DNA from: Carcharhinus longimanus
Lineage: Eukaryota
Assembly: GCA_030264375.1 (NCBI GenBank)
Contig: JASCQW010000122.1
Span: forward strand, 43,467,313 to 43,531,312
Direction of reading: 5' to 3'
DNA length: 64,000 nt
In this document: piece after piece, positions 14,463 through 62,845 of the stretch
How the letters are laid out: each line of letters begins with the position of its first letter
Position numbering within the stretch: the stretch's first letter is position 1
Translations under genes and position numbers: made by a program
The notes under the pieces: model-generated
The model's database searches: none
What the model saw: only the letters and a program-made list of their open reading frames with translations
What the model was told of the DNA's origin: nothing

Positions 14463-14599
14463 TCAAGCTTGATGTACCCGGGGCCTTGAGCTGGATTCAG
14501 TTGGCTTTTGAATTTCGTTTTTGGAGCAAGTAAGGAATGGACTTGGGGTTGCCTGGACCGTTCTGAGCATTGGCTTTATAACTTTAAGAATGGAGTTAA
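14463..14599 (+). mobile_element. Third, 5'-truncated copy of the U2-derived element (upstream of exon 2, presumably intron 1)
   Basis: TGGATTCA...TTTTTGGAGCAAG...GAATGGACTTGGGGTTGCC...CTGAGCATTGGCTTTATAACTTTAAGAATGGAGT aligns colinearly with the 3' two-thirds of the 62350-62545 copy. Confidence 0.75.
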
Positions 14600-15669
14600 G
14601 AGAAGATATCTTGAAGTTCATACCCTCAGCTGAGGAATTGTTTGTTTTCAATTCAGTAATGATATTTACCACGGGTGGAAACACTCTAGTTCATTATGTT
14701 TGTCAACTATGTGGCTGACTACCTGTTAATTATAATGTAACACTGAAAACAGTATGAGAAATATATATATAAAATTCAGAATTTGCAGATTGGATGATCT
14801 ATTCTTTTTTATATATATTTTGTGTATATGTGTGTGTAGTCAGTTAAATTGTTTATAACTGCAGTGGAATCAAGTCTGACTGTTATGGAGTCCTACAAGT
14901 GCAACATACAAGACACTTTAGCGATCTAACTGCTAGTGAGCGCAGAGTACTGATTTTGGACTCGAATGAATGGGTGGAAGGATAAAAGTGTGGAACATGT
15001 TTTGGCAGTGCATCAGTGAGCAGAGTCTCAGTAATGGATGAACCACAAAACTTGAAATGTTTTGGAAAGACATTTTGGATTCAACATTATGTAGCTTTCG
15101 TTCCCAGTGTGCTCAGCTGGGCAGCACATCTCAAGAGTATAGTCATTGAATCATCCTCGGGTAACTTGTTACCCATTCATGTGCCAACAGTGTAGTCATT
15201 GAGTCTCTCATGATTCATTCAAATGCTAGCTCCTACAAATTCACAGTGATACAAATCAGGCATTTATCCTTTAGTGATGGAGAACTGGCACCAAAATAAT
15301 CCCTACGAATGATGCAATAGCACTTTCAGCTGGGTTGTAGTTGTGCTATTTTGAACATTTATAAAATTGGTTACTGCAAGCTTTGATTATGATGTCTAAT
15401 TTCTAATGTATGTAATATTCAGACCCAACTGAGAACATCCTGCAGTTAAATTGGGCTTTTTAACACAGTGGCAGAGTGGAAATGAATGATGGATAGATGC
15501 TAGGAGAGGAACTAATGGGTTGAACATGAGAGTGCATGCTGAGACAGGTTTTGAGAAAACATTTGAAATGTGGATGGATTGAGCAAGTGGGAGATGTTTT
15601 GGGGAGTGTAATCTCAGTTCCAGGCCTTGATAATTGAGAACTCTATAGCTAGTGTTGGTATGGAATAGG

Positions 15670-26686: not shown

Positions 26687-27039
26687 CTTTCCCCTGGTTT
26701 GGAATGGACATTGGTGGAACTCTTGTCAAACTTGTGTATTTTGAGCCAAAAGATATCACAGCTGAAGAAGAGCAGGAGGAAGTGGAGAATTTGAAGAGCA
26801 TTAGAAAATATCTGACCTCGAACATAGCTTATGGGAAGACAGGGATTCGCGATGTGCACCTGGAGCTGAAGAACTTGATCATGTGTGGACGAAAAGGGAA
26901 CTTGCATTTCATCCGCTTTCCAACGCATTCCATGCCTAAATTCATCCAAATGGGTAGAGATAAGAATTTCTCTAGTTTACACACTACAATGTGTGCTACA
27001 GGAGGTGGTGCCTACAAATTTGAGGATGATTTCAGAATG
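26687..27039 (+). CDS. PANK1: Pantothenate kinase 1, coding exon 2 (353 nt, phase 1 to phase 0)
   Basis: Translates as [45 protein letters not shown]...[16 protein letters not shown], with the DIGGT ATP-binding motif of type II PanK. Acceptor cttgttttctttgcag| and donor ATG|gtatgt. [18 protein letters not shown] and [15 protein letters not shown] match PANK1 as recalled. Confidence 0.96.
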
Positions 27040-27860: not shown

Positions 27861-28187
27861 ATGCTTCCAATGCATGTCTTAACTACATGAAGTAGTTTTA
27901 ACAGATAAACGTTTACATTTGGATTGGCGCATCTGTTTCTTTTTGATTGTATTTGTAACAAAAGATCTGGATATCCTTTGTGAATTAATTTTCAAGTCAA
28001 CAGGGGTAAAGTACATTTATTACTGTGGTATATCATATAAACTTTATGTAGAATAGTTCTCTTCGCAAAATAATAAAGAAGTATACCTGGCTTAGTTGGA
28101 AAAGTTCATATTATACATTACAGTTTTGAACTTTGTACTGTTCCTTGGACAAGTGGTTCAGATGTCTGTTTATTTGCTGTTTTCCAG

Positions 28188-28441
28188 ATGGCTGACTTGC
28201 AGCTTCACAAACTGGATGAGTTGGACTGTTTAATCCAAGGCCTTCTTTATATTGATTCCGTTGGGTACAATGGTCAGTCTGAGTGCTACTATTTTGAAAA
28301 ACCCACTGACCCTGACCAGTGCCAGAAAAAACCATATTGCTTAGATAACCCTTACCCAATGTTGCTGGTCAACATAGGTTCAGGGGTCAGCATCCTGGCT
28401 GTTTATTCCAAAGACAATTACAAAAGGGTGACTGGAACCAG
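28188..28441 (+). CDS. PANK1: PANK1 coding exon 3 (254 nt)
   Basis: [26 protein letters not shown]...[30 protein letters not shown]. Acceptor tgttttccag| and donor AG|gtaagc. The frame joins exons 2 and 4. Confidence 0.96.
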
Positions 28442-36725: not shown

Positions 36726-36802
36726 TAATAAAGGCAGTTATGCTGAATGGTTTTTATCTGCATTTGCTTCACAACTAATGTTTTTTTTTTCCCCCTTCTC
36801 AG

Positions 36803-36979
36803 TCTTGGTGGAGGAACTTTCCTCGGCCTTTGTTGTCTGCTTACTGGCTGTGAAACCTTTGAAGAAGCTTTGGAGATGGCAGCAAAAGGAGACAGCACTA
36901 ATGTAGATAAATTAGTTAAAGATATCTACGGAGGGGACTATGAGCGGTTTGGCTTACTGGGATGTGCGGTAGCTTCCAG
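36803..36979 (+). CDS. PANK1: PANK1 coding exon 4 (177 nt)
   Basis: (S)[58 protein letters not shown]. Long polypyrimidine tract plus ag acceptor; donor AG|gtaaga. Confidence 0.96.
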
Positions 36980-43714: not shown

Positions 43715-44660
43715 TATAATGCCCAGTAAACGCATGCCATGTTCATAATTTCCAAATAGGAAATTTACTTTGTGTGGAATCGTTTGGAACTGACTTTTCC
43801 TTCAAAGTGGGCAGTATGTGCTGAAAAAGATGACCACTGAGGGTCATCTAATCTGACCTGTGAATTAAAACTCTCACAAGGACAAAAGGGTACATTCCAG
43901 ACTAAGACGTGTCAACTGACCGTATCCTGAGACCATCCAAATGACATTCTTGAGTTGAGTGAGTCTCTCTGAAACAAAGATGGTGATTGTCTCAACTTTC
44001 CCTTAGAATGAATATCTTCAAACATTAAATCAGGTTGTGGCTAATCAACCTAGGACTAAACCATATTTGGTAAAAGAAGCTGAGAAGCGACAGATGGTAG
44101 CCGCGTTGATCTCCCTTTTAATCTTAAGGTGCTGACTACAGAAAGACACAGCAGAAGCAGAAAAACTGTAACATCGTAAGGTCTCCAAGCCTGTTCCTTT
44201 CTGGTCCACCAATATTGCCAACTGACCTTCTGGCAACAGGACTACAGGTAACTAACTTTGTGAACTGCAGAAAGTCCATCTCTTCGAGAGAATCCTGAAA
44301 AACACATTGGGGCATAACTCTGGCGATTCCAGTGACCTAAATTACACATCAGGAGTGAAGACATTCTTTCCATCAAGTCTGCAAAGTGTGTTTTCCAACA
44401 GGACAATCACATGGATTATGAGCTATTTTTGTTTATACCTTGTAAAAGTGCACTATTCTCTTCAACTGTACTTTCCTTGTGCTTGACTGTGTGAGTGAGT
44501 GCTCTAGCACTAAATTTTGAATTGAATGTGCAAATAAACAAAAAACTTACTGCTGGTTAATCAATTGTTCACATGTTTGGGTTAAGAAACACACCCACCT
44601 TCTCAAGCTAACTGATCAATGGACAGTAGGGTAGGGAAATGGGATCAGTAGTGTTCTAAA
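43715..44660 (+). repeat. 5' LTR
   Basis: Colinear with 47189-48165; shared blocks include ctcacaaggacaaaa, gattgtctcaact, tcttcaaacattaaa, tattctcttcaactg and cttctcaa(a)gctaactgat. Confidence 0.8.
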
Positions 44661-47188: not shown

Positions 47189-48165
47189 TGTCATGCCCAT
47201 AAAGGCATCTCATATTCATAACTTGTAAAATATAAACTTTTACTTGGTGTGTGATCTTTCGGAACTGATTTTTCCATTAAAATGGACGGTATATGCTGCA
47301 AAAGACGGCTGACCTGATCTGTGAATTCAAAAACTCACAAGGACAAAATGTTGCTCTCCAGACTAAAAGGTGTTAGCTGCCCATATCCTGAGAGCTTCCA
47401 AATGGGTTGAGCTGAATGGGTCTTTCTGAAACCAAGGTGGCGATTGTCTCAACTCTCTTCAGAATGAATGTCTTCAAACATTAAACAAGGTTGTGGTTAA
47501 TCAGCCTAAGACCAAACTACATTTTGTAAAGGGAGCTGTGAGAAGCCACATGGTAGTGCAGCCATGTTGGTCTCAGTTTTGATCTTGAAAGTGTTGACTA
47601 CATAAAGATATAGCAGTAGAAGAAAGGACAGTAACATGTATGCCTTGAGAACCGAAGACTGAACATCTCCAAGCCTATTCCTTCTTGGGTCCAGAACTAC
47701 TATCAGCTAACCTTCTGGCATCAAGACAACAAGGGACATCTTTGCGACCTGCAGAAGTCCAGCTCTTTGAGAGAACCCTGAAAAACACTTTAGCACATGA
47801 CTCTGGCTTTCAAGTTAACTGAACTGTGCTTCAGGAGTGAAGATATGTTATCTATCAAGCTGACAACATACGTTTTCCAGAACAGGACAGTGACACAAAT
47901 TGTAAACTATTCCTTTTGTTTCTAACTTGTAGAAGTGCATTATTCTCTTCAACTGCACTTCTCTCGTGTGTGTTTGTGTGTTCGGCTGCATGAGTAAGTA
48001 CCATCACATTAGATTTCAGTATGCGTGTGAATAAACAATCTTACAAAAAGCTTGCTGCTGATTATTCAAATTGCCCAAGCACTTAGGAGTTAAGAAATAC
48101 GCACATCTTCTCAAAGCTAACTGATTACATTCAGCAGAGAAGGAAATAGAGATCAATAGTGTTCT
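47189..48165 (+). repeat. 3' LTR
   Basis: Starts TGTCATG; direct repeat of 43715-44660. Confidence 0.8.
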
Positions 48166-48983
48166 CTCGTGCTGTGCATTATATAGAGATATAGAATACA
48201 AAAAGCATGGAGATACAGGAATCTAACACTAGTTAATGGTGCTGTATGCAGTTTTAAGCACATAATTGTTGAAATTATATGCACTCAATGGAAAAGATTC
48301 ACTGGGGTATTACTAGAGATGAAGAGCGATTTTTGAGAAGTTGAGACTTTTTTCTGTCAGAACTGAAGTTAAAGACCAAAAGGTCTTCAAGATTACAAGA
48401 TTAGAATGAAGTATAAGTGACCCTTTCCTTCTGGTTCGTGAAATAAAGTGGACAAGTTATGGTACAAAGAATCAAAGGATGAATTTGAAAAAGTCTAGTC
48501 ACAGTGGGACTCATGGGACTGAGTAGTCTACCCTTGTTCATAACATATCTGTGTGTTAGTATGGAGGAAAGTATTGTCACAGACCTGGTGTACTGTAACA
48601 TTCTGTTGTGATTTTGAGAGTTGATAGCGAATCAGTTGTGAAGCTACTTTTGTTTTGGGGAAAATCAGACTTCAGATACACCATGGAATTGATTTTGACC
48701 AGATCGAGTGCAAGTGTTTGGAAATGTGTGTATAACAGTCCAGATTGGATTTGTCCAATATTTGCATGTTCTGTCTGCTTTTGTTTATATGGTCAAGCCA
48801 CTGGAATATCAGTGGATAACCTCTCTCTGATTTGAAGACTTGAGACATGGGTAGGCTAAGTAGATTTTTAAAATGTGAAATAACCTGAATAGCCATCTTT
48901 TTAAATCAAAGTTTGAGCAATCAGAAATAGTTTGAAGGTTTCTCCTCATGTCTTCAATCTTTGCTTTTTTTAAACTCCTACAG

Positions 48984-49107
48984 CTTTGGTCACATGATGA
49001 GTAAGGAGAAGCGTGATTCCATCAGCAAGGAAGATTTGGCCAGAGCAACGCTGGTCACTATCACAAACAATATTGGATCCATAGCTCGCATGTGTGCACT
49101 GAATGAG
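48984..49107 (+). CDS. PANK1: PANK1 coding exon 5 (124 nt)
   Basis: Not in the ORF track; read manually as (S)[41 protein letters not shown]. Acceptor ctcctacag| and donor GAG|gtaagc. Confidence 0.96.
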
Positions 49108-50224: not shown

Positions 50225-50520
50225 AAACCATGTGTCAGCCTCCGTCAAATAGAATACATTCCCATGGTGCAGTCTTTGGTTTTAAGCTAATTTTCTGAGT
50301 ATATCATGTGTTGCTTCCTGCAGTTTCCCCTCCATTGCGGAAAGTAACAATCATAGTAAGCCTTAGGGAAGAATGGGAGGTGGACCAGATCTTTTCCTCA
50401 CCAGCTGGACTAAGATCATCATGCTGATCCAAGAATATGAAATGATAAATACCAGTACTTACCTGACAGGGATGGAATCATGATCAAGCAGGGCTTTGAC
50501 ACTCTCCTGCCAGTTAAGTA
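50225..50520 (+). pseudogene. U1 snRNA-derived fragments directly upstream of the U2-derived element
   Basis: 50456-50492 TACTTACCTGACAGGGATGGAATCATGATCAAGCAGG is 29/37 ungapped to the U1 5' end. 50502-50520 is an inverted U1 5' end (17/19). 50306-50343 ATGTGTTGCTTCCTGCAGTTTCCCC...GGAAA resembles the U1 stem II/III region. Confidence 0.65.
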
Positions 50521-50619
50521 CACGATCAGACAAGTTCATCTCTCGGGCTAGGATAGAGTCAATGATCAGGGTAACCGATGAGGTTTAACCGAGACGTTAC
50601 CTGATGCAATTTTTCAAAA

Positions 50620-50775
50620 CCATCTCAGCCTTTTGGCTAAACTGAAAAACCAGGTCAAGCCCAAGATGGGGTGCAATGCCTCATCTTGTCAGCTTGGATC
50701 TTGTTTGTCTCCCTTGTCGGAACCATGGATTAGATTCAGTTTGAATTTGCTTTTCTTTTTGGATGGAATAAAAAT
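50620..50775 (+). mobile_element. Second copy of the U2-derived element (PANK1 intron 5)
   Basis: TCTCAGCCTTTTGGCTAA at 50623-50640 matches U2 stem I. 50655-50701 is 45/47 identical to the reverse complement of 62472-62518. The copy ends just after a TTTTTGGA motif. Confidence 0.8.
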
Positions 50776-50989
50776 TTGTGGAAAAAAACCCCACCAATAA
50801 TGGTTTAACTTTGGCAGGGGAGCGAAGCCTTGTTGCAAGTGATATTTCTGCAGAACGTAAGAAGCACCTTTTTAAAGTGTTTGTGATTTTTCTCTTCCCC
50901 CACTCAACCAAAATAACTCGGTTTCACATCAAAGATCCACCTATGATTTCGAGGCTTACGAGTCATCCTCAAACTCTTGCCTTTGTTTC

Positions 50990-52720: not shown

Positions 52721-52801
52721 CTCTGTGCTTTGAGCTTCTTTACAGTGTTGCCTTGTAGCATGGAGATCAAGCAGCATTGTACAGGGCTATCAAAGTGCAG
52801 G
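52721..52801 (+). ncRNA. MIR107: pre-miR-107 hairpin in PANK1 intron 5; mature 3p arm 52770-52792, 5p arm about 52733-52755
   Basis: AGCAGCATTGTACAGGGCTATCA is the miR-107 sequence (miR-103 ends TATGA). The 5p arm is AGCTTCTTTACAGTGTTGCCTTG and the basal stem ctgtgctttga/tcaaagtgcag pairs. miR-107 in PANK1 intron 5 is the known vertebrate arrangement. Confidence 0.98.
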
Positions 52802-53927
52802 GACAGGCATCTTGAACTCAGTGCTGCAAGTTTCCTGTCTGTGTTGCACCAACCATCGCTTTTTGTGAGGAAACATTCGATCTGGACTTTTGTATTATAA
52901 TTGGTGGTTTAAGTGCCTGTGTACATCAAAATGAATTAAACAGACATATTTATAACACAATGCAATGGCCTATTACTATTGTACTATTAAGATTCAATGA
53001 TAATATTGAGCCAATTGAAAATGAATGTTGTTGGATATAGTCTTTAAAGTGTGAAAGATGGAAGTTTGTTCTTTCAAAAGCTTCTGGGATTTGGTCTTGC
53101 TTACGTTGTGATTAGTATGATTCCAATTCAAAACATTGGCCTCAAAATAATGGTCTGAAGCTATTTTGCAAATGCTTAACATGTTTGTATTAAATTCCGT
53201 AGCCCAATATTTTAATGTTCACGTCAGGCTGTTTTAAAACTAGTTGTGATAAAATAGCAGACGAAGAAACTACACAAATGCATCAAGTGCTTATACATTA
53301 ACTTCCATAGTTTATGTTCTGGGGGTGGGGATAATGGAAAGGTTTGCAAGGTGCACTGTCTTCCAAATAGTTGAGTGGAATATTTGGTGAACCAAAGCAT
53401 TTTATCATGTTTTGTGGATGGGCAGAAAAGGAATATGTGTGAGAGATAAGGAAGTGAGCCCCCTTTTTACACTGCTTTTGAAAATACAACAAACTGGAGA
53501 TTAGGGCTCCTCTTTCTCTCCCTTAAGCAGACTCATCCTTAAGTTATAGTTCCATGGCCTGTAAATGGTGCTGGGAGGGATGGCCATTCTAAATATGCAA
53601 CCCTAGACATAAATATCAGTATGTCGTTAGACCGAGCTGTACCTTTCCAACCCTTGGATGCAGTTTTCTATCGGGTCTGGAACAGAAGCCCTGTCTATTA
53701 TTTTCTCCCCCACTCCATCTGCACCTGGTGACACTAAGTCCAGGTGTGCCCTTGCCAGTCTCTTGGTTGAAAGCCTACGCTATGCCGCTCAGAGACAAAG
53801 TAAAGGATCTTCCTAATCTGATTAACTCAACATCTCACAGCTTGATTATCCAGTAGAGGTTTCTGAAAATTAATTACATTGTTTTTTTTTCTTAAATCCT
53901 AATTTTCTCTATATGGCCTTACTGCAG

Positions 53928-54053
53928 AACATCAACAGGGTGGTGTTTGTTGGAAACTTCCTGCGAATCAATATGGTCTCCATGAAGTTATTAGCATACG
54001 CTATGGATTATTGGTCCAATGGGCAACTGAAAGCCTTGTTCTTGGAGCATGAG
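53928..54053 (+). CDS. PANK1: PANK1 coding exon 6 (126 nt)
   Basis: [42 protein letters not shown]. Acceptor ccttactgcag| and donor GAG|gtaagc. Confidence 0.96.
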
Positions 54054-55435
54054 GTAAGCCTCTGTAATACTGTTGGGTTGTGTATAGCTGAATATATCTA
54101 AACCAGAGCAAGGTTTTGCCACCTGATTTAATTAATTGAGCCAAGCAAAGTCACTTAACATAGAAATTCATGTCAAGGAGGATGCATGGTGTAAATCTGT
54201 GATGTTGGAATAAGGTTATTAAATTAATTAGACTGGAGTTTAATTTGCCAAATACATGAATGAACGTGGAATCTTAAATCCAGGTATTACCACTGTATAA
54301 GGGTGGATGCAACAAGGTCATAATTTTTACAGTCATCATATCAGGCCCCAAGGTAGCTTGGCAAGTGCTGTAAATTTCACTGATATCAAGTATCACACCA
54401 GTAGATGGAGCCGTCAGCATAATGTTATTAGATCTGTGGGAAGTCACAACAATGATTCTGCTTCTACCTTGACTCCACATACAGCATAACAGTCCGCTTC
54501 TGTCAGAAAGTAAGCAACTGTTTTCCATCCCAGGAGGTCAGCAATGTGTTTACACAGCTGAGATGCTGCAAAAAGCAAACACACAAAAGTAAAGGCCTGT
54601 CAGTTATAGTAACTCAAGTGTATCTTCTGACAGTGGTACATCACAAGATTTTTAAAAAGTTACACTTGGAGAAAGCGAATAACGTGTCTGTGGAAGCAAA
54701 AGGATGCATTTAGAAATTGAAGTTTGAATTGTCGGGAGTATGAGCTGACGTTGCAAAAGTGTTCTGTAGGCAAACTTGCATGAGTTGCATGACAGGAATT
54801 GAAACGGATAATTAGAACCACGTTATTTGCGTAACCAATTCTGCGCTGCTTCATAGACCTCTAACTTGAAAAAACTTGCCAAATATCAGCTTGCTGCTAG
54901 GACCGAAACCCTGCAAACCATATCTTTGGACAAAATATAAACCACTGCATATACAGCCAAAGAAACCACTAAAACTCATCATCACCTGCCAACTCCCATC
55001 TGCTAGATATTGAAGATACCCTCTGATAAATTGTAATCTACCCTCGCTAGTTGAACAGATAAGTGAGTGCCCGTAGAGAGGGATGCCTGGGTGAAGTAGT
55101 CACCGTACTATTGTGCCTAAGGCCTGGCCATTGTGCAGCAAAATGTGCATTGAGCATATTCTGAATTTCCAAGATACCTCTTCCTATCTAACCTGCTGTC
55201 AACAGTAAAAATCCCTGCAAAGCCAGACTGTAGCCCCAGCACCGACAACTCTTCCCTCGCACATCATGTTGACCCACGACAAGGACACACTGCATTCAAA
55301 ATGGTCAAAGCCCATTCACAGGGTGTTAGGAGCTTCCTTTTCTCTTTCTACTCAACAATTTTTGCTCCAATGCCCTTTAATGAAACAAAAAACAGATCTG
55401 GTAGTTTATTTGATCTGTGCATATACCATAGTTTT

Positions 55436-62124: not shown

Positions 62125-62845
62125 GATAGTGCCTTCAATATAATAATACTTATAAAAGTTCTTCATAGGCACATCATAAAATTTAACACAAGCACACAGA
62201 GATATGGCAGATGCCCAATACCTAATCAAAAAGCTTTTAAGGAGTGTCTTACAAGAAGAAAGAGAGGTAGTGAAGTTTGAAAAGTGAGTTCCAGAGCTTA
62301 GGACCTGGGCAGCTGGGAGAATGGCCACCAGTGCTGGAACAATTTAACATTTTTTTACTCCATTTTTAAAATTACAAAGTCAATGCTCAGATGGACTGGA
62401 CAAACCCAAATCCATTCCTTGCTCCAAAAACCGATTTCAACATTCATTTGAATCCAATTAAAAGATCCCCGAGATCCAAGCTGACAAGATGAGGCAATGC
62501 ACCCCATCTTAGGCTTGATCTTGGCCCAAAGGCCAAGAAGCAAATGGCCAGAATTAGAGGAATGCAGACAGTTTAGAAGGCTGGAGGAGATTCCGAAATG
62601 GGGAGGGGTGAGGGCATATGGAGGAATTCAAGAGCAAGGATAAGAATTTTAAAATTGGAGTGTAACGCTTCTCAATCTGGAGCCGTTATAGAGCAGCAAA
62701 CACAGAAAATGATGTTAGGATATGGGCAGCAGAGTTTTGGATGACTTCAAGTTTGCAAAGCAGAACATGCAAAGCTCCCAGGGAAGTATTGGAATGATCA
62801 AGCTTAGATGTAATAGAGGATGAGTGTTTCGGCAGCTAATGAGTG
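62125..62845 (-). mobile_element. L2-type LINE 3' portion interrupted by the U2-derived element
   Basis: Reverse complement of the L2 family at 27330-27860 (gagttccagagcttagg...ggccagaattagagg...tcaagcttagatgtaatagagg). Confidence 0.75.
62350..62545 (-). mobile_element. U2 snRNA-derived dispersed element (SINEU-like or retrocopy of a variant U2), near full length
   Basis: The minus strand begins TTTGCTTCTTGGCCTTTGGGCCAAGATCAAG, 26/31 ungapped to U2 nt 1-31. It continues with TCTTGTCAGCTTGGATCT (U2 stem IIa-like) and TTTTTGGAGCAAGGAATGGA...GTCCA...GCATTGAC (Sm site/stem III-like), then a short A tail. It interrupts an L2 fragment. Confidence 0.8.

Follow-up and report, generated by a model that had tools for sequence, protein, structure and literature searches.

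Near one end of the window (the whole stretch of 64,000 nucleotides of shark DNA analysed here) lies a minus-strand element resembling U2 snRNA, and the question that it raises is whether it is a decayed pseudogene, a copy of a variant snRNA or a member of a dispersed retroposon family and, in the last case, how such a family could arise from a U2 gene. An earlier note had proposed a high-copy, SINEU-like family from masters that were no longer canonical U2, with retrocopies of a variant U2 as the alternative. The element (62544-62350) matched positions 1-192 of the Rfam model RF00004 with 34.6 bits and E=0.0028, a significant value although the score is below the gathering score of 46 (true U2 genes reach up to 188 bits), and its proposed start at U2 nt 1 was confirmed against the best U2 gene of the genome (L031, 188 bits). 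Including its tail, this copy of what we call family A and its surroundings have the following parts.

62340..62544, minus strand: full-length family A copy of the single-head variant, a U2-derived retroposon with an A-rich tail (Rfam U2 E=0.0028; family profile 170 bits)
62514..62544, minus strand: head from U2 nt 1-31 including stem I (62538-62519), 26/31 match to the genome's own U2 gene L031
62473..62520, minus strand: 48-nt extended hairpin, in whose outer helix a duplicated unit of U2 nt 24-31 pairs with what used to be the 5' strand of stem IIa (supported by covariation among families A, B and C)
62485..62511, minus strand: inner stem, tightened, an ungapped homolog of U2 nt 22-48, the branchpoint-interacting stem-loop (alignment and folding energy)
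62424..62432, minus strand: Sm-site remnant, a T run preceded by G, not A
62390..62417, minus strand: stem III homolog (the segment from the Sm site onward aligns to U2 95-170, 0/500 shuffles; pairing predicted)
62360..62386, minus strand: 3' end from stem-loop IV with the loop deleted (alignment through older subfamilies)
62340..62359, minus strand: AGTAAA, resembling a poly(A) signal, and A/T-rich tail (AATAAA in older and sister families)
62546..62800, minus strand: host LINE fragment, L2-like, 5' side (homologous uninterrupted sites in 5 loci)
62190..62339, minus strand: host LINE fragment, L2-like, 3' side (homologous genomic copies)

This copy is 89% identical to the family A column majority and belongs to a single-head type found in 14 of 84 family A copies. 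Stem I, the Sm-like T run (62432-62424) and stem III, which had been recognised before, are present, and the loop of the inner stem (62501-62495, minus strand) is without the branch-pairing GTAGTA. The segment described earlier as stem IIa-like does resemble that stem in sequence, but its partner strand has changed and it now pairs in a new outer helix. The element was also said to interrupt an L2, and this is the case if the host fragment is what we take it to be: both flanks match other genomic copies, and whereas a blastn search for an empty site gave none, nhmmer later gave five uninterrupted sites holding approximately 17-35 nt that are absent here. About 25 nt of the L2-like host are accordingly gone at the insertion point (a target deletion), and no target site duplication (TSD) was found at this copy. 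There are no tRNA genes in the window, and the window copy, the only one scanned, contains three internal T runs and no match at two or fewer mismatches to the Pol III B-box motif.

Family A is abundant. Its 3' 20-mer, which older subfamilies also carry, gave 2,658 genome matches (1,278+1,380) with at most two mismatches, compared with 3 (2+1) for the reversed control, and correction for a divergence of 6-15% leads to an estimate of approximately 3,000-6,600 copies. These counts, together with derived characters that are linked among copies, bear out a high-copy SINEU-like family whose masters had already departed from canonical U2. Only a handful of copies, the lack of a significant RF00004 match or true U2 genes with the same sequence had been named as observations that would speak against it; instead, copies run to thousands, the RF00004 match is significant though sub-threshold, and the true U2 genes of this genome differ in sequence from family A. 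A sample of 57 stretches of 10 kb, placed arbitrarily (483,284 non-N bases), contained five elements, namely one of family A, one older A-like copy, two of a sister family B and one of a sister family C, and extrapolation from these five sampled elements suggests about 24,000 members of the A/B/C group genome-wide (95% interval 7,600-55,000). The sampled density predicts approximately 0.6 elements per 64 kb. The two additional copies that the earlier note had reported in the window are real (nhmmer E 5.6e-14 and 1.8e-11), but three copies in 64 kb is a density above the genome average.

The mean identity to the column majority is 90.5% (K2P 0.10) in thirty A copies picked by similarity. When 40 of 4,605 candidates were scored, the closest match to a near-majority A copy was 90%, and no conserved cluster was seen; considering that even the closest match is so divergent, family A looks extinct, whereas family B is younger (95%). 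Sampled words of one A copy were present at 32-74% in seven organisms. Contigs of organism B (~99% alike) and organism D (~90-94%) cross both junctions of the window insertion, indicating that this insertion predates those splits, and reads of organism C accumulate over the element but do not do so over the unique flank.

We examined how much of family A can be traced to U2. The A majority without its head aligns to the genome's own U2 39-170 with a score of 84.7, compared with 30.6±5.3 for shuffled sequences (reached in 0/500), and the family is colinear with U2 from nt 1 to approximately nt 184, with stems I, IIb and III and the branchpoint-interacting stem recognisable. A search with an older A-like copy brought up intermediates between U2 and family A. 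The subfamily majorities are 78% (A0, n=4), 75% (A1, n=14) and 69% (A2, n=9) identical to U2, in a classing that left 31 of 61 copies in no class, and the tree joining U2 with A0 is weakly supported except for the clade containing the window copy. In the 95 copies that were scored out of 119 loci, old and new states go together across hairpin, stem III and tail (p 4e-9 to 1e-12), a pattern expected from successive masters. The 3' end, which the earlier note had regarded as non-U2, turns out to derive from U2 stem-loop IV by deletion of its 8-nt loop, followed by AATAAA or AGTAAA and an A/T tail; this origin is visible through the older subfamilies, while the alignment of A alone is not significant (157/500 shuffles as good). 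Branch-site loop, stem IIa and loop IV have been lost, and the Sm site is mostly degraded, with the A before the T run retained in 8 of 48 scored copies. Judged from these alignments, family A is derived from U2 almost end to end, and the older subfamilies form a graded series from the genome's own U2; by eye, stem IIb of the core agrees with the L031-type paralog and not with the L032/L034 types.

Several divergent U2 and U1 paralogs are present in this genome. A number of loci (several of L035-L051) are dispersed U2 pseudogenes of the L031 type, mostly with the same ~40 nt of 3' flank, the same end point and no A tail, which suggests that they are copies of a 3'-extended pre-U2. Variant U2 genes form two groups (L046, L047 and L048; L033 and L058) on short contigs with shared flanks. 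The members of the former group have kept the 5' domain without most of stem-loop IV and are possibly a transcribed variant cluster.

The 48-nt hairpin is present in A, C and, twice, in B, so that the three families, which have a common core, represent one hairpin lineage. In 36 copies chosen out of the 104 found, pairing holds in 92.7% of cells, and both sides have changed in 5 of the 10 inner pairs; this pairing percentage and the covariation score were reached in 0/500 shuffles and slid controls were far lower, a result that is not a probability because the copies are related by descent. The inner 27 nt align ungapped to U2 nt 22-48, and the folding energy of the inner stem is -13.1 kcal/mol versus -2.1 kcal/mol for the U2 segment. 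An interpretation of the hairpin as a 24-nt insertion in place of the branch site was dropped, since it corresponds to the stem of U2 nt 22-48, with duplicated head units in front of it. The loop forms a series from TGTAGTA through TGTAATG (the commonest form in older copies, 6/18) to TGCAATG (26/57 A copies), and the branch-pairing GTAGTA was found in none of the 57 scored hairpins and none of 60 heads. Two stem changes, A30G (53/57) and U43A (55/57), predominate, with both counts inflated by the pattern that picked the hairpins. In the accessible part of a published study on human cells, both changes are described as stabilising the stem, and hardly any or no reporter splicing was obtained with U43A and with the double mutant, where low expression is a confounding factor (PMC13019295). 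We infer that the masters may have been selected for structure while splicing function was lost, and the hairpin might have been favoured in them for RNA stability or for recognition by the LINE machinery.

Family A is ~205-225 nt long, family B ~300 nt and family C ~300-330 nt, and all three have A-rich tails. Family B consists of a U2 nt 1-40 head and ~260 nt (2,272 first-look candidates), and family C has U1-derived heads and a U4 piece before the same core (920 candidates). All 30 C copies match the genome's own U4 nt 23-48 with at most 7 mismatches in 26, whereas random pieces never had fewer than 10, and 13/30 C copies match nt 4-46 of the U1 paralog L205 within 14 mismatches, versus 0/60 controls; a second C head type resembles the U1 paralogs L203/L204. 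A degenerate version of the U4 piece can be made out by eye in B, but it does not score against U4. At least five divergent full-length U1 paralogs (among L201-L206) have compensatory-looking differences, and two of them match C subtype heads. Four C copies (L179, L191, L194 and L197) contain tandem U1 head units or 48-nt hairpins (up to three), and the hairpin variants still pair. At another locus (L059, reverse strand, ~980-1118), a sequence that we take to be 5S rRNA-like adjoins the U2 head of a B copy at the U2 nt 39 site, and this B copy is interrupted by another repeat.

The other two copies in the window belong to families A and C, the latter within an intron of PANK1, whose exons are on the plus strand between ~26.7 and 54 kb (138/184 plus-strand frames scanned).

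14479..14600, plus strand: 3' half of a family A copy truncated at the 5' end (100 bits over family profile positions 109-223)
50456..50788, plus strand: family C copy in a PANK1 intron, with head units from U1, a piece of U4, a core from U2 that stops shortly after the Sm site, AATAAA (50767-50772) and a tail
50456..50555, plus strand: two units derived from the U1 5' end (50456-50507 and 50517-50555; local alignments to the genome's own U1 genes)
50571..50596, plus strand: piece of U4 nt 23-48 (24/26 to the genome's own U4 gene L213)
~26695-27039, 28185-28439, 36801-36977, 48982-49107 and 53913-54056, plus strand: PANK1 exons

What had been given as a copy at 50620-50775 is therefore a genuine member of the group, but only the 3' half of a longer family C element that starts near 50456. 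Its U1 units are weak (score 50 versus a shuffle maximum of 45.1) and clear in other C copies; an Rfam search of 50300-50900 reported no U1 or U4, and both parts were identified by alignment to U1 and U4 genes of the genome itself. One PANK1 exon is 99% identical to a catshark protein and 98% to a stingray protein, and at most 93% to the other matches listed, which places the genome among the elasmobranchs. A mir-103/107 precursor (Rfam 95.3 bits) is located at 52723-52800 on the plus strand inside the gene, and PANK1 is the known host of mir-103/107. The window also contains a pair of direct repeats of ~950 nt with 71% identity (43719-44657 and 47193-48165).

Marks of insertion were examined in A and B. 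The 5' ends of A lie at U2 nt 1-19 (65 scorable of 84 copies); no common upstream flank beyond nt 1 was found among 23 listed or 30 pattern-picked copies, and no common downstream flank among the 30 pattern-picked copies. TSDs of at least 10 were detected in 6/28 B copies versus 0/400 controls, and in 3/51 A copies versus 4/400 controls, the excess being weak for A. Keno and Utopia are LINEs that target U2 genes, with the junction resuming at U2 nt 39 (PMC4640811 and PMC6136364, in the parts available). Among 10 genome-wide junctions of an A run with U2 nt 39, three belong to family B, three or four to LINE 3' ends of one family and none to A, the remainder being a U2 head, one unassigned case and one chance match. 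Addition of L060 brings the B junctions to four, which are on two U2 paralog types and thus represent at least two insertion events.

The partner LINE, labelled Tx1-type by domain architecture and target rather than by phylogeny, has RVT_1 and zf-RVT domains, and many of its relatives carry an AP endonuclease. Its 3' motif has 718 exact matches, and no full-length copy with a 5' end was recovered from 20 loci, which are truncated or gapped. Of 30 unselected LINE 3' ends, two lie within 40 nt of a full B (no more than 0.009 expected); none of the 30 abuts U2 nt 39, implying that the site specificity of this LINE is loose. The tandem L150/L151, an assembly-gap duplicate, was left out of neighbour counts. 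A B-type head surrounds one copy of the LINE, with 9 nt duplicated (U2 nt 29-37), and L281 is an array of the order LINE-B-B. No LINE 3' motif was found in the flanks of 84 A copies, four of which have another family member within 250 nt; one older A-like copy sits between two LINE 3' ends. A and the LINE have no common 3' sequence beyond an AATAAA-like motif and an A tail. Considering that B and the Tx1-type LINE both abut U2 nt 39 and adjoin each other far above chance, mobilisation of B by Tx1 is likely, and the LINE that moved B may also have moved A. The possibility that A and B are Keno 3' UTR fragments was ruled out because the 3' end of the LINE differs in sequence and B possesses a U2 head of its own. 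A separate locus (L233, G000:C32 ~64,139,000-64,140,900, minus strand) has a nested order of LINE 3' end, U2 39-186, spacer, U2 1-37, A run, U2 39-58 and LINE fragment, and may be what is left of a U2 gene array that was invaded more than once.

Several of these findings go beyond the earlier note, namely the sister families, the modules from U1 and U4, the gradation among subfamilies, the tightening of the stem and the association with Tx1. We consider it quite probable that family A is a dispersed family that arose from the U2 gene of the shark lineage, likely an extinct SINEU-type retroposon whose masters would have had an external snRNA promoter, been polyadenylated and been mobilised by a Tx1 (Keno-like) LINE. 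Masters behind an external snRNA promoter (U2 or U1) would give Pol II transcripts starting at nt 1; these would be polyadenylated through AATAAA/AGTAAA, presumed to act as the signal, and retrotransposed by a Tx1-type (Keno-like) LINE, and heads might be renewed either through template switching or when copies insert into U2 genes. Comparisons of flanks among copies revealed no master locus behind an snRNA promoter. A more far-reaching version, which we put forward tentatively and hold to be somewhat less than an even chance, is that A, B and C belong to an independently born elasmobranch class of U2/U1/U4 mosaics that renews its promoter via insertion into U2 genes and acts as a stable, splicing-dead carrier RNA. 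A copy carried by a Keno-type endonuclease to U2 nt 38/39 would land behind the U2 promoter and be transcribed with a U2 nt 1-40 head, while the masters would lock the branchpoint-interacting stem shut (A30G, U43A) and erase the branch-pairing loop, which is also the target of the LINE.

The copies might instead be retropseudogenes of a functional shark-specific variant U2-like snRNA, for example a regulatory or decoy snRNP RNA, and not a selfish SINE. Their near-U2 length and start at nt 1, the compensatory changes that keep stems (and so point to a source RNA under structural selection) and the several divergent U2 and U1 paralogs in the genome agree with such a source. However, the loss of the branch-pairing sequence from all 57 hairpins and the chimeric U1/U4/U2 sister families with their duplications disfavour this alternative of the earlier note, as do the eroded Sm site (A before the T run in 8/48), the deleted loop IV, A tails and poly(A)-like signals unlike mature U2, and the 90% best match without a conserved cluster (40 scored of 4,605), and we regard it as unlikely.

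It is also conceivable that A is a SINEU-type retroposon moved by another LINE (L2/CR1 or L1) and that only B was moved by Tx1. Partners of CR1/L2 usually need a LINE-derived tail on the SINE, and A, derived from U2 up to the poly(A)-like signal, leaves no room for one. Direct A-Tx1 junctions are missing (0/10 junctions, 0/84 flanks), the window copy is inside an L2-like fragment, and L2 and CR1 are the prevalent LINEs of the elephant shark according to the available text of PMC5381603, all of which would suit another LINE; nevertheless, the descent of A, B and C from one hairpin lineage and the older A-like copy nested in Tx1 ends make this quite improbable. Least credible, and in our judgment hardly tenable, is that the copies are processed pseudogenes of ordinary U2 that decayed independently, or LINE 3' ends truncated at the 5' side. 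Ordinary U2 pseudogenes do occur in the genome, but the copies are ~90% identical to their own majority while subfamily majorities are 69-78% identical to U2, their duplications and substitutions are shared and linked, no common sequence continues upstream, and the Tx1 3' end is a different sequence.

A SINEU-type origin of these shark families would have several implications. A second, probably independent radiation would make snRNA-headed SINEs recurrent wherever a U2-associated Tx1 LINE is active, and the surviving intermediates make it possible to trace stepwise how a U2 gene turned into a mobile element. The B insertions at the U2 Keno site provide a testable model of promoter capture which, if true, would answer how SINEUs are transcribed. 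The U4 module broadens the known sources of SINE parts, and the covarying stem offers a natural experiment on the branchpoint-interacting stem-loop of U2. On the practical side, A/B/C repeats will inflate the snRNA annotation of shark genomes, and insertions common to several organisms could be used as phylogenetic markers.

No description of a shark SINEU or of a U4-derived SINE part was found in the literature searched, a scope that left most subscription journals, Repbase and Dfam outside, and no shark SINEU is named in the accessible portions of PMC5381603, PMC5786205, PMC4758252, PMC5753468, PMC5499810 and 10.1101/2025.02.02.635956. Relative to U2 itself (RF00004), A no longer has the loop for branch pairing, stem IIa or loop IV, has largely lost the Sm site and has gained shared derived changes and an A tail. 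Like Keno and Utopia, B and some local copies of the Tx1-type LINE have a 3' junction that resumes at U2 nt 39 (PMC4640811 and PMC6136364, as far as their available text goes); unlike them, the shark element is non-coding and ~200 nt long, and the local LINE is mostly dispersed (0/30 unselected ends at U2).

The closest known system is SINEU, which, in the available text of Kojima 2015 (PMC4494074), was defined from and found in crocodilians only and linked to Tx1-Mar, with its transcription left open. The shark families have the features of this class, namely a U1/U2-derived head, a length below 500 bp, a 3' A tail, a high copy number with a common structure and marks of retrotransposition, and the absence of an internal Pol III promoter and the presence of internal oligo-T are the same in the window copy, the only one scanned. 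Sharing of a target with Tx1 is seen for B, whereas A gave 0/10 junctions and 0/84 flanks, and a single repeat target of the Mariner-N4_AMi type was not observed for A among 30 pattern-picked copies. Within the parts of PMC4494074 available, SINEU-3 resembles A in being a monomeric U2 derivative that has the U2 5' end and a poly(A) tail and lacks a Pol III promoter, in its old copies, which number thousands (~89% to the consensus there versus ~90% here), and in a proposed mobilisation by Tx1. It differs in its ~50-bp internal deletion, its 3' ~40 bp unrelated to U2 and the location of 90% of its copies in Mariner-N4_AMi, whereas A has no common flanks, short duplications, U2-derived sequence up to the tail and a tightened branchpoint stem, a distinction made from the published description, not from sequence. 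SINEU-1 and SINEU-2, as described there, resemble B and C in the recurrent 5' gain of U1/U2-derived heads, in partial duplications and in a mixture of TSD, target deletion or no change. In contrast, the same description gives SINEU-1/2 only U1 and U2 parts and an insertion in a DNA transposon, whereas the shark families include a U4-derived module, their heads match the genome's own U1 paralogs and B inserts at the U2 Keno site. Because the parts match the genome's own paralogs, an independent origin is favoured, and on present sequence comparisons the shark families are probably a SINEU-type radiation independent of the crocodilian one.
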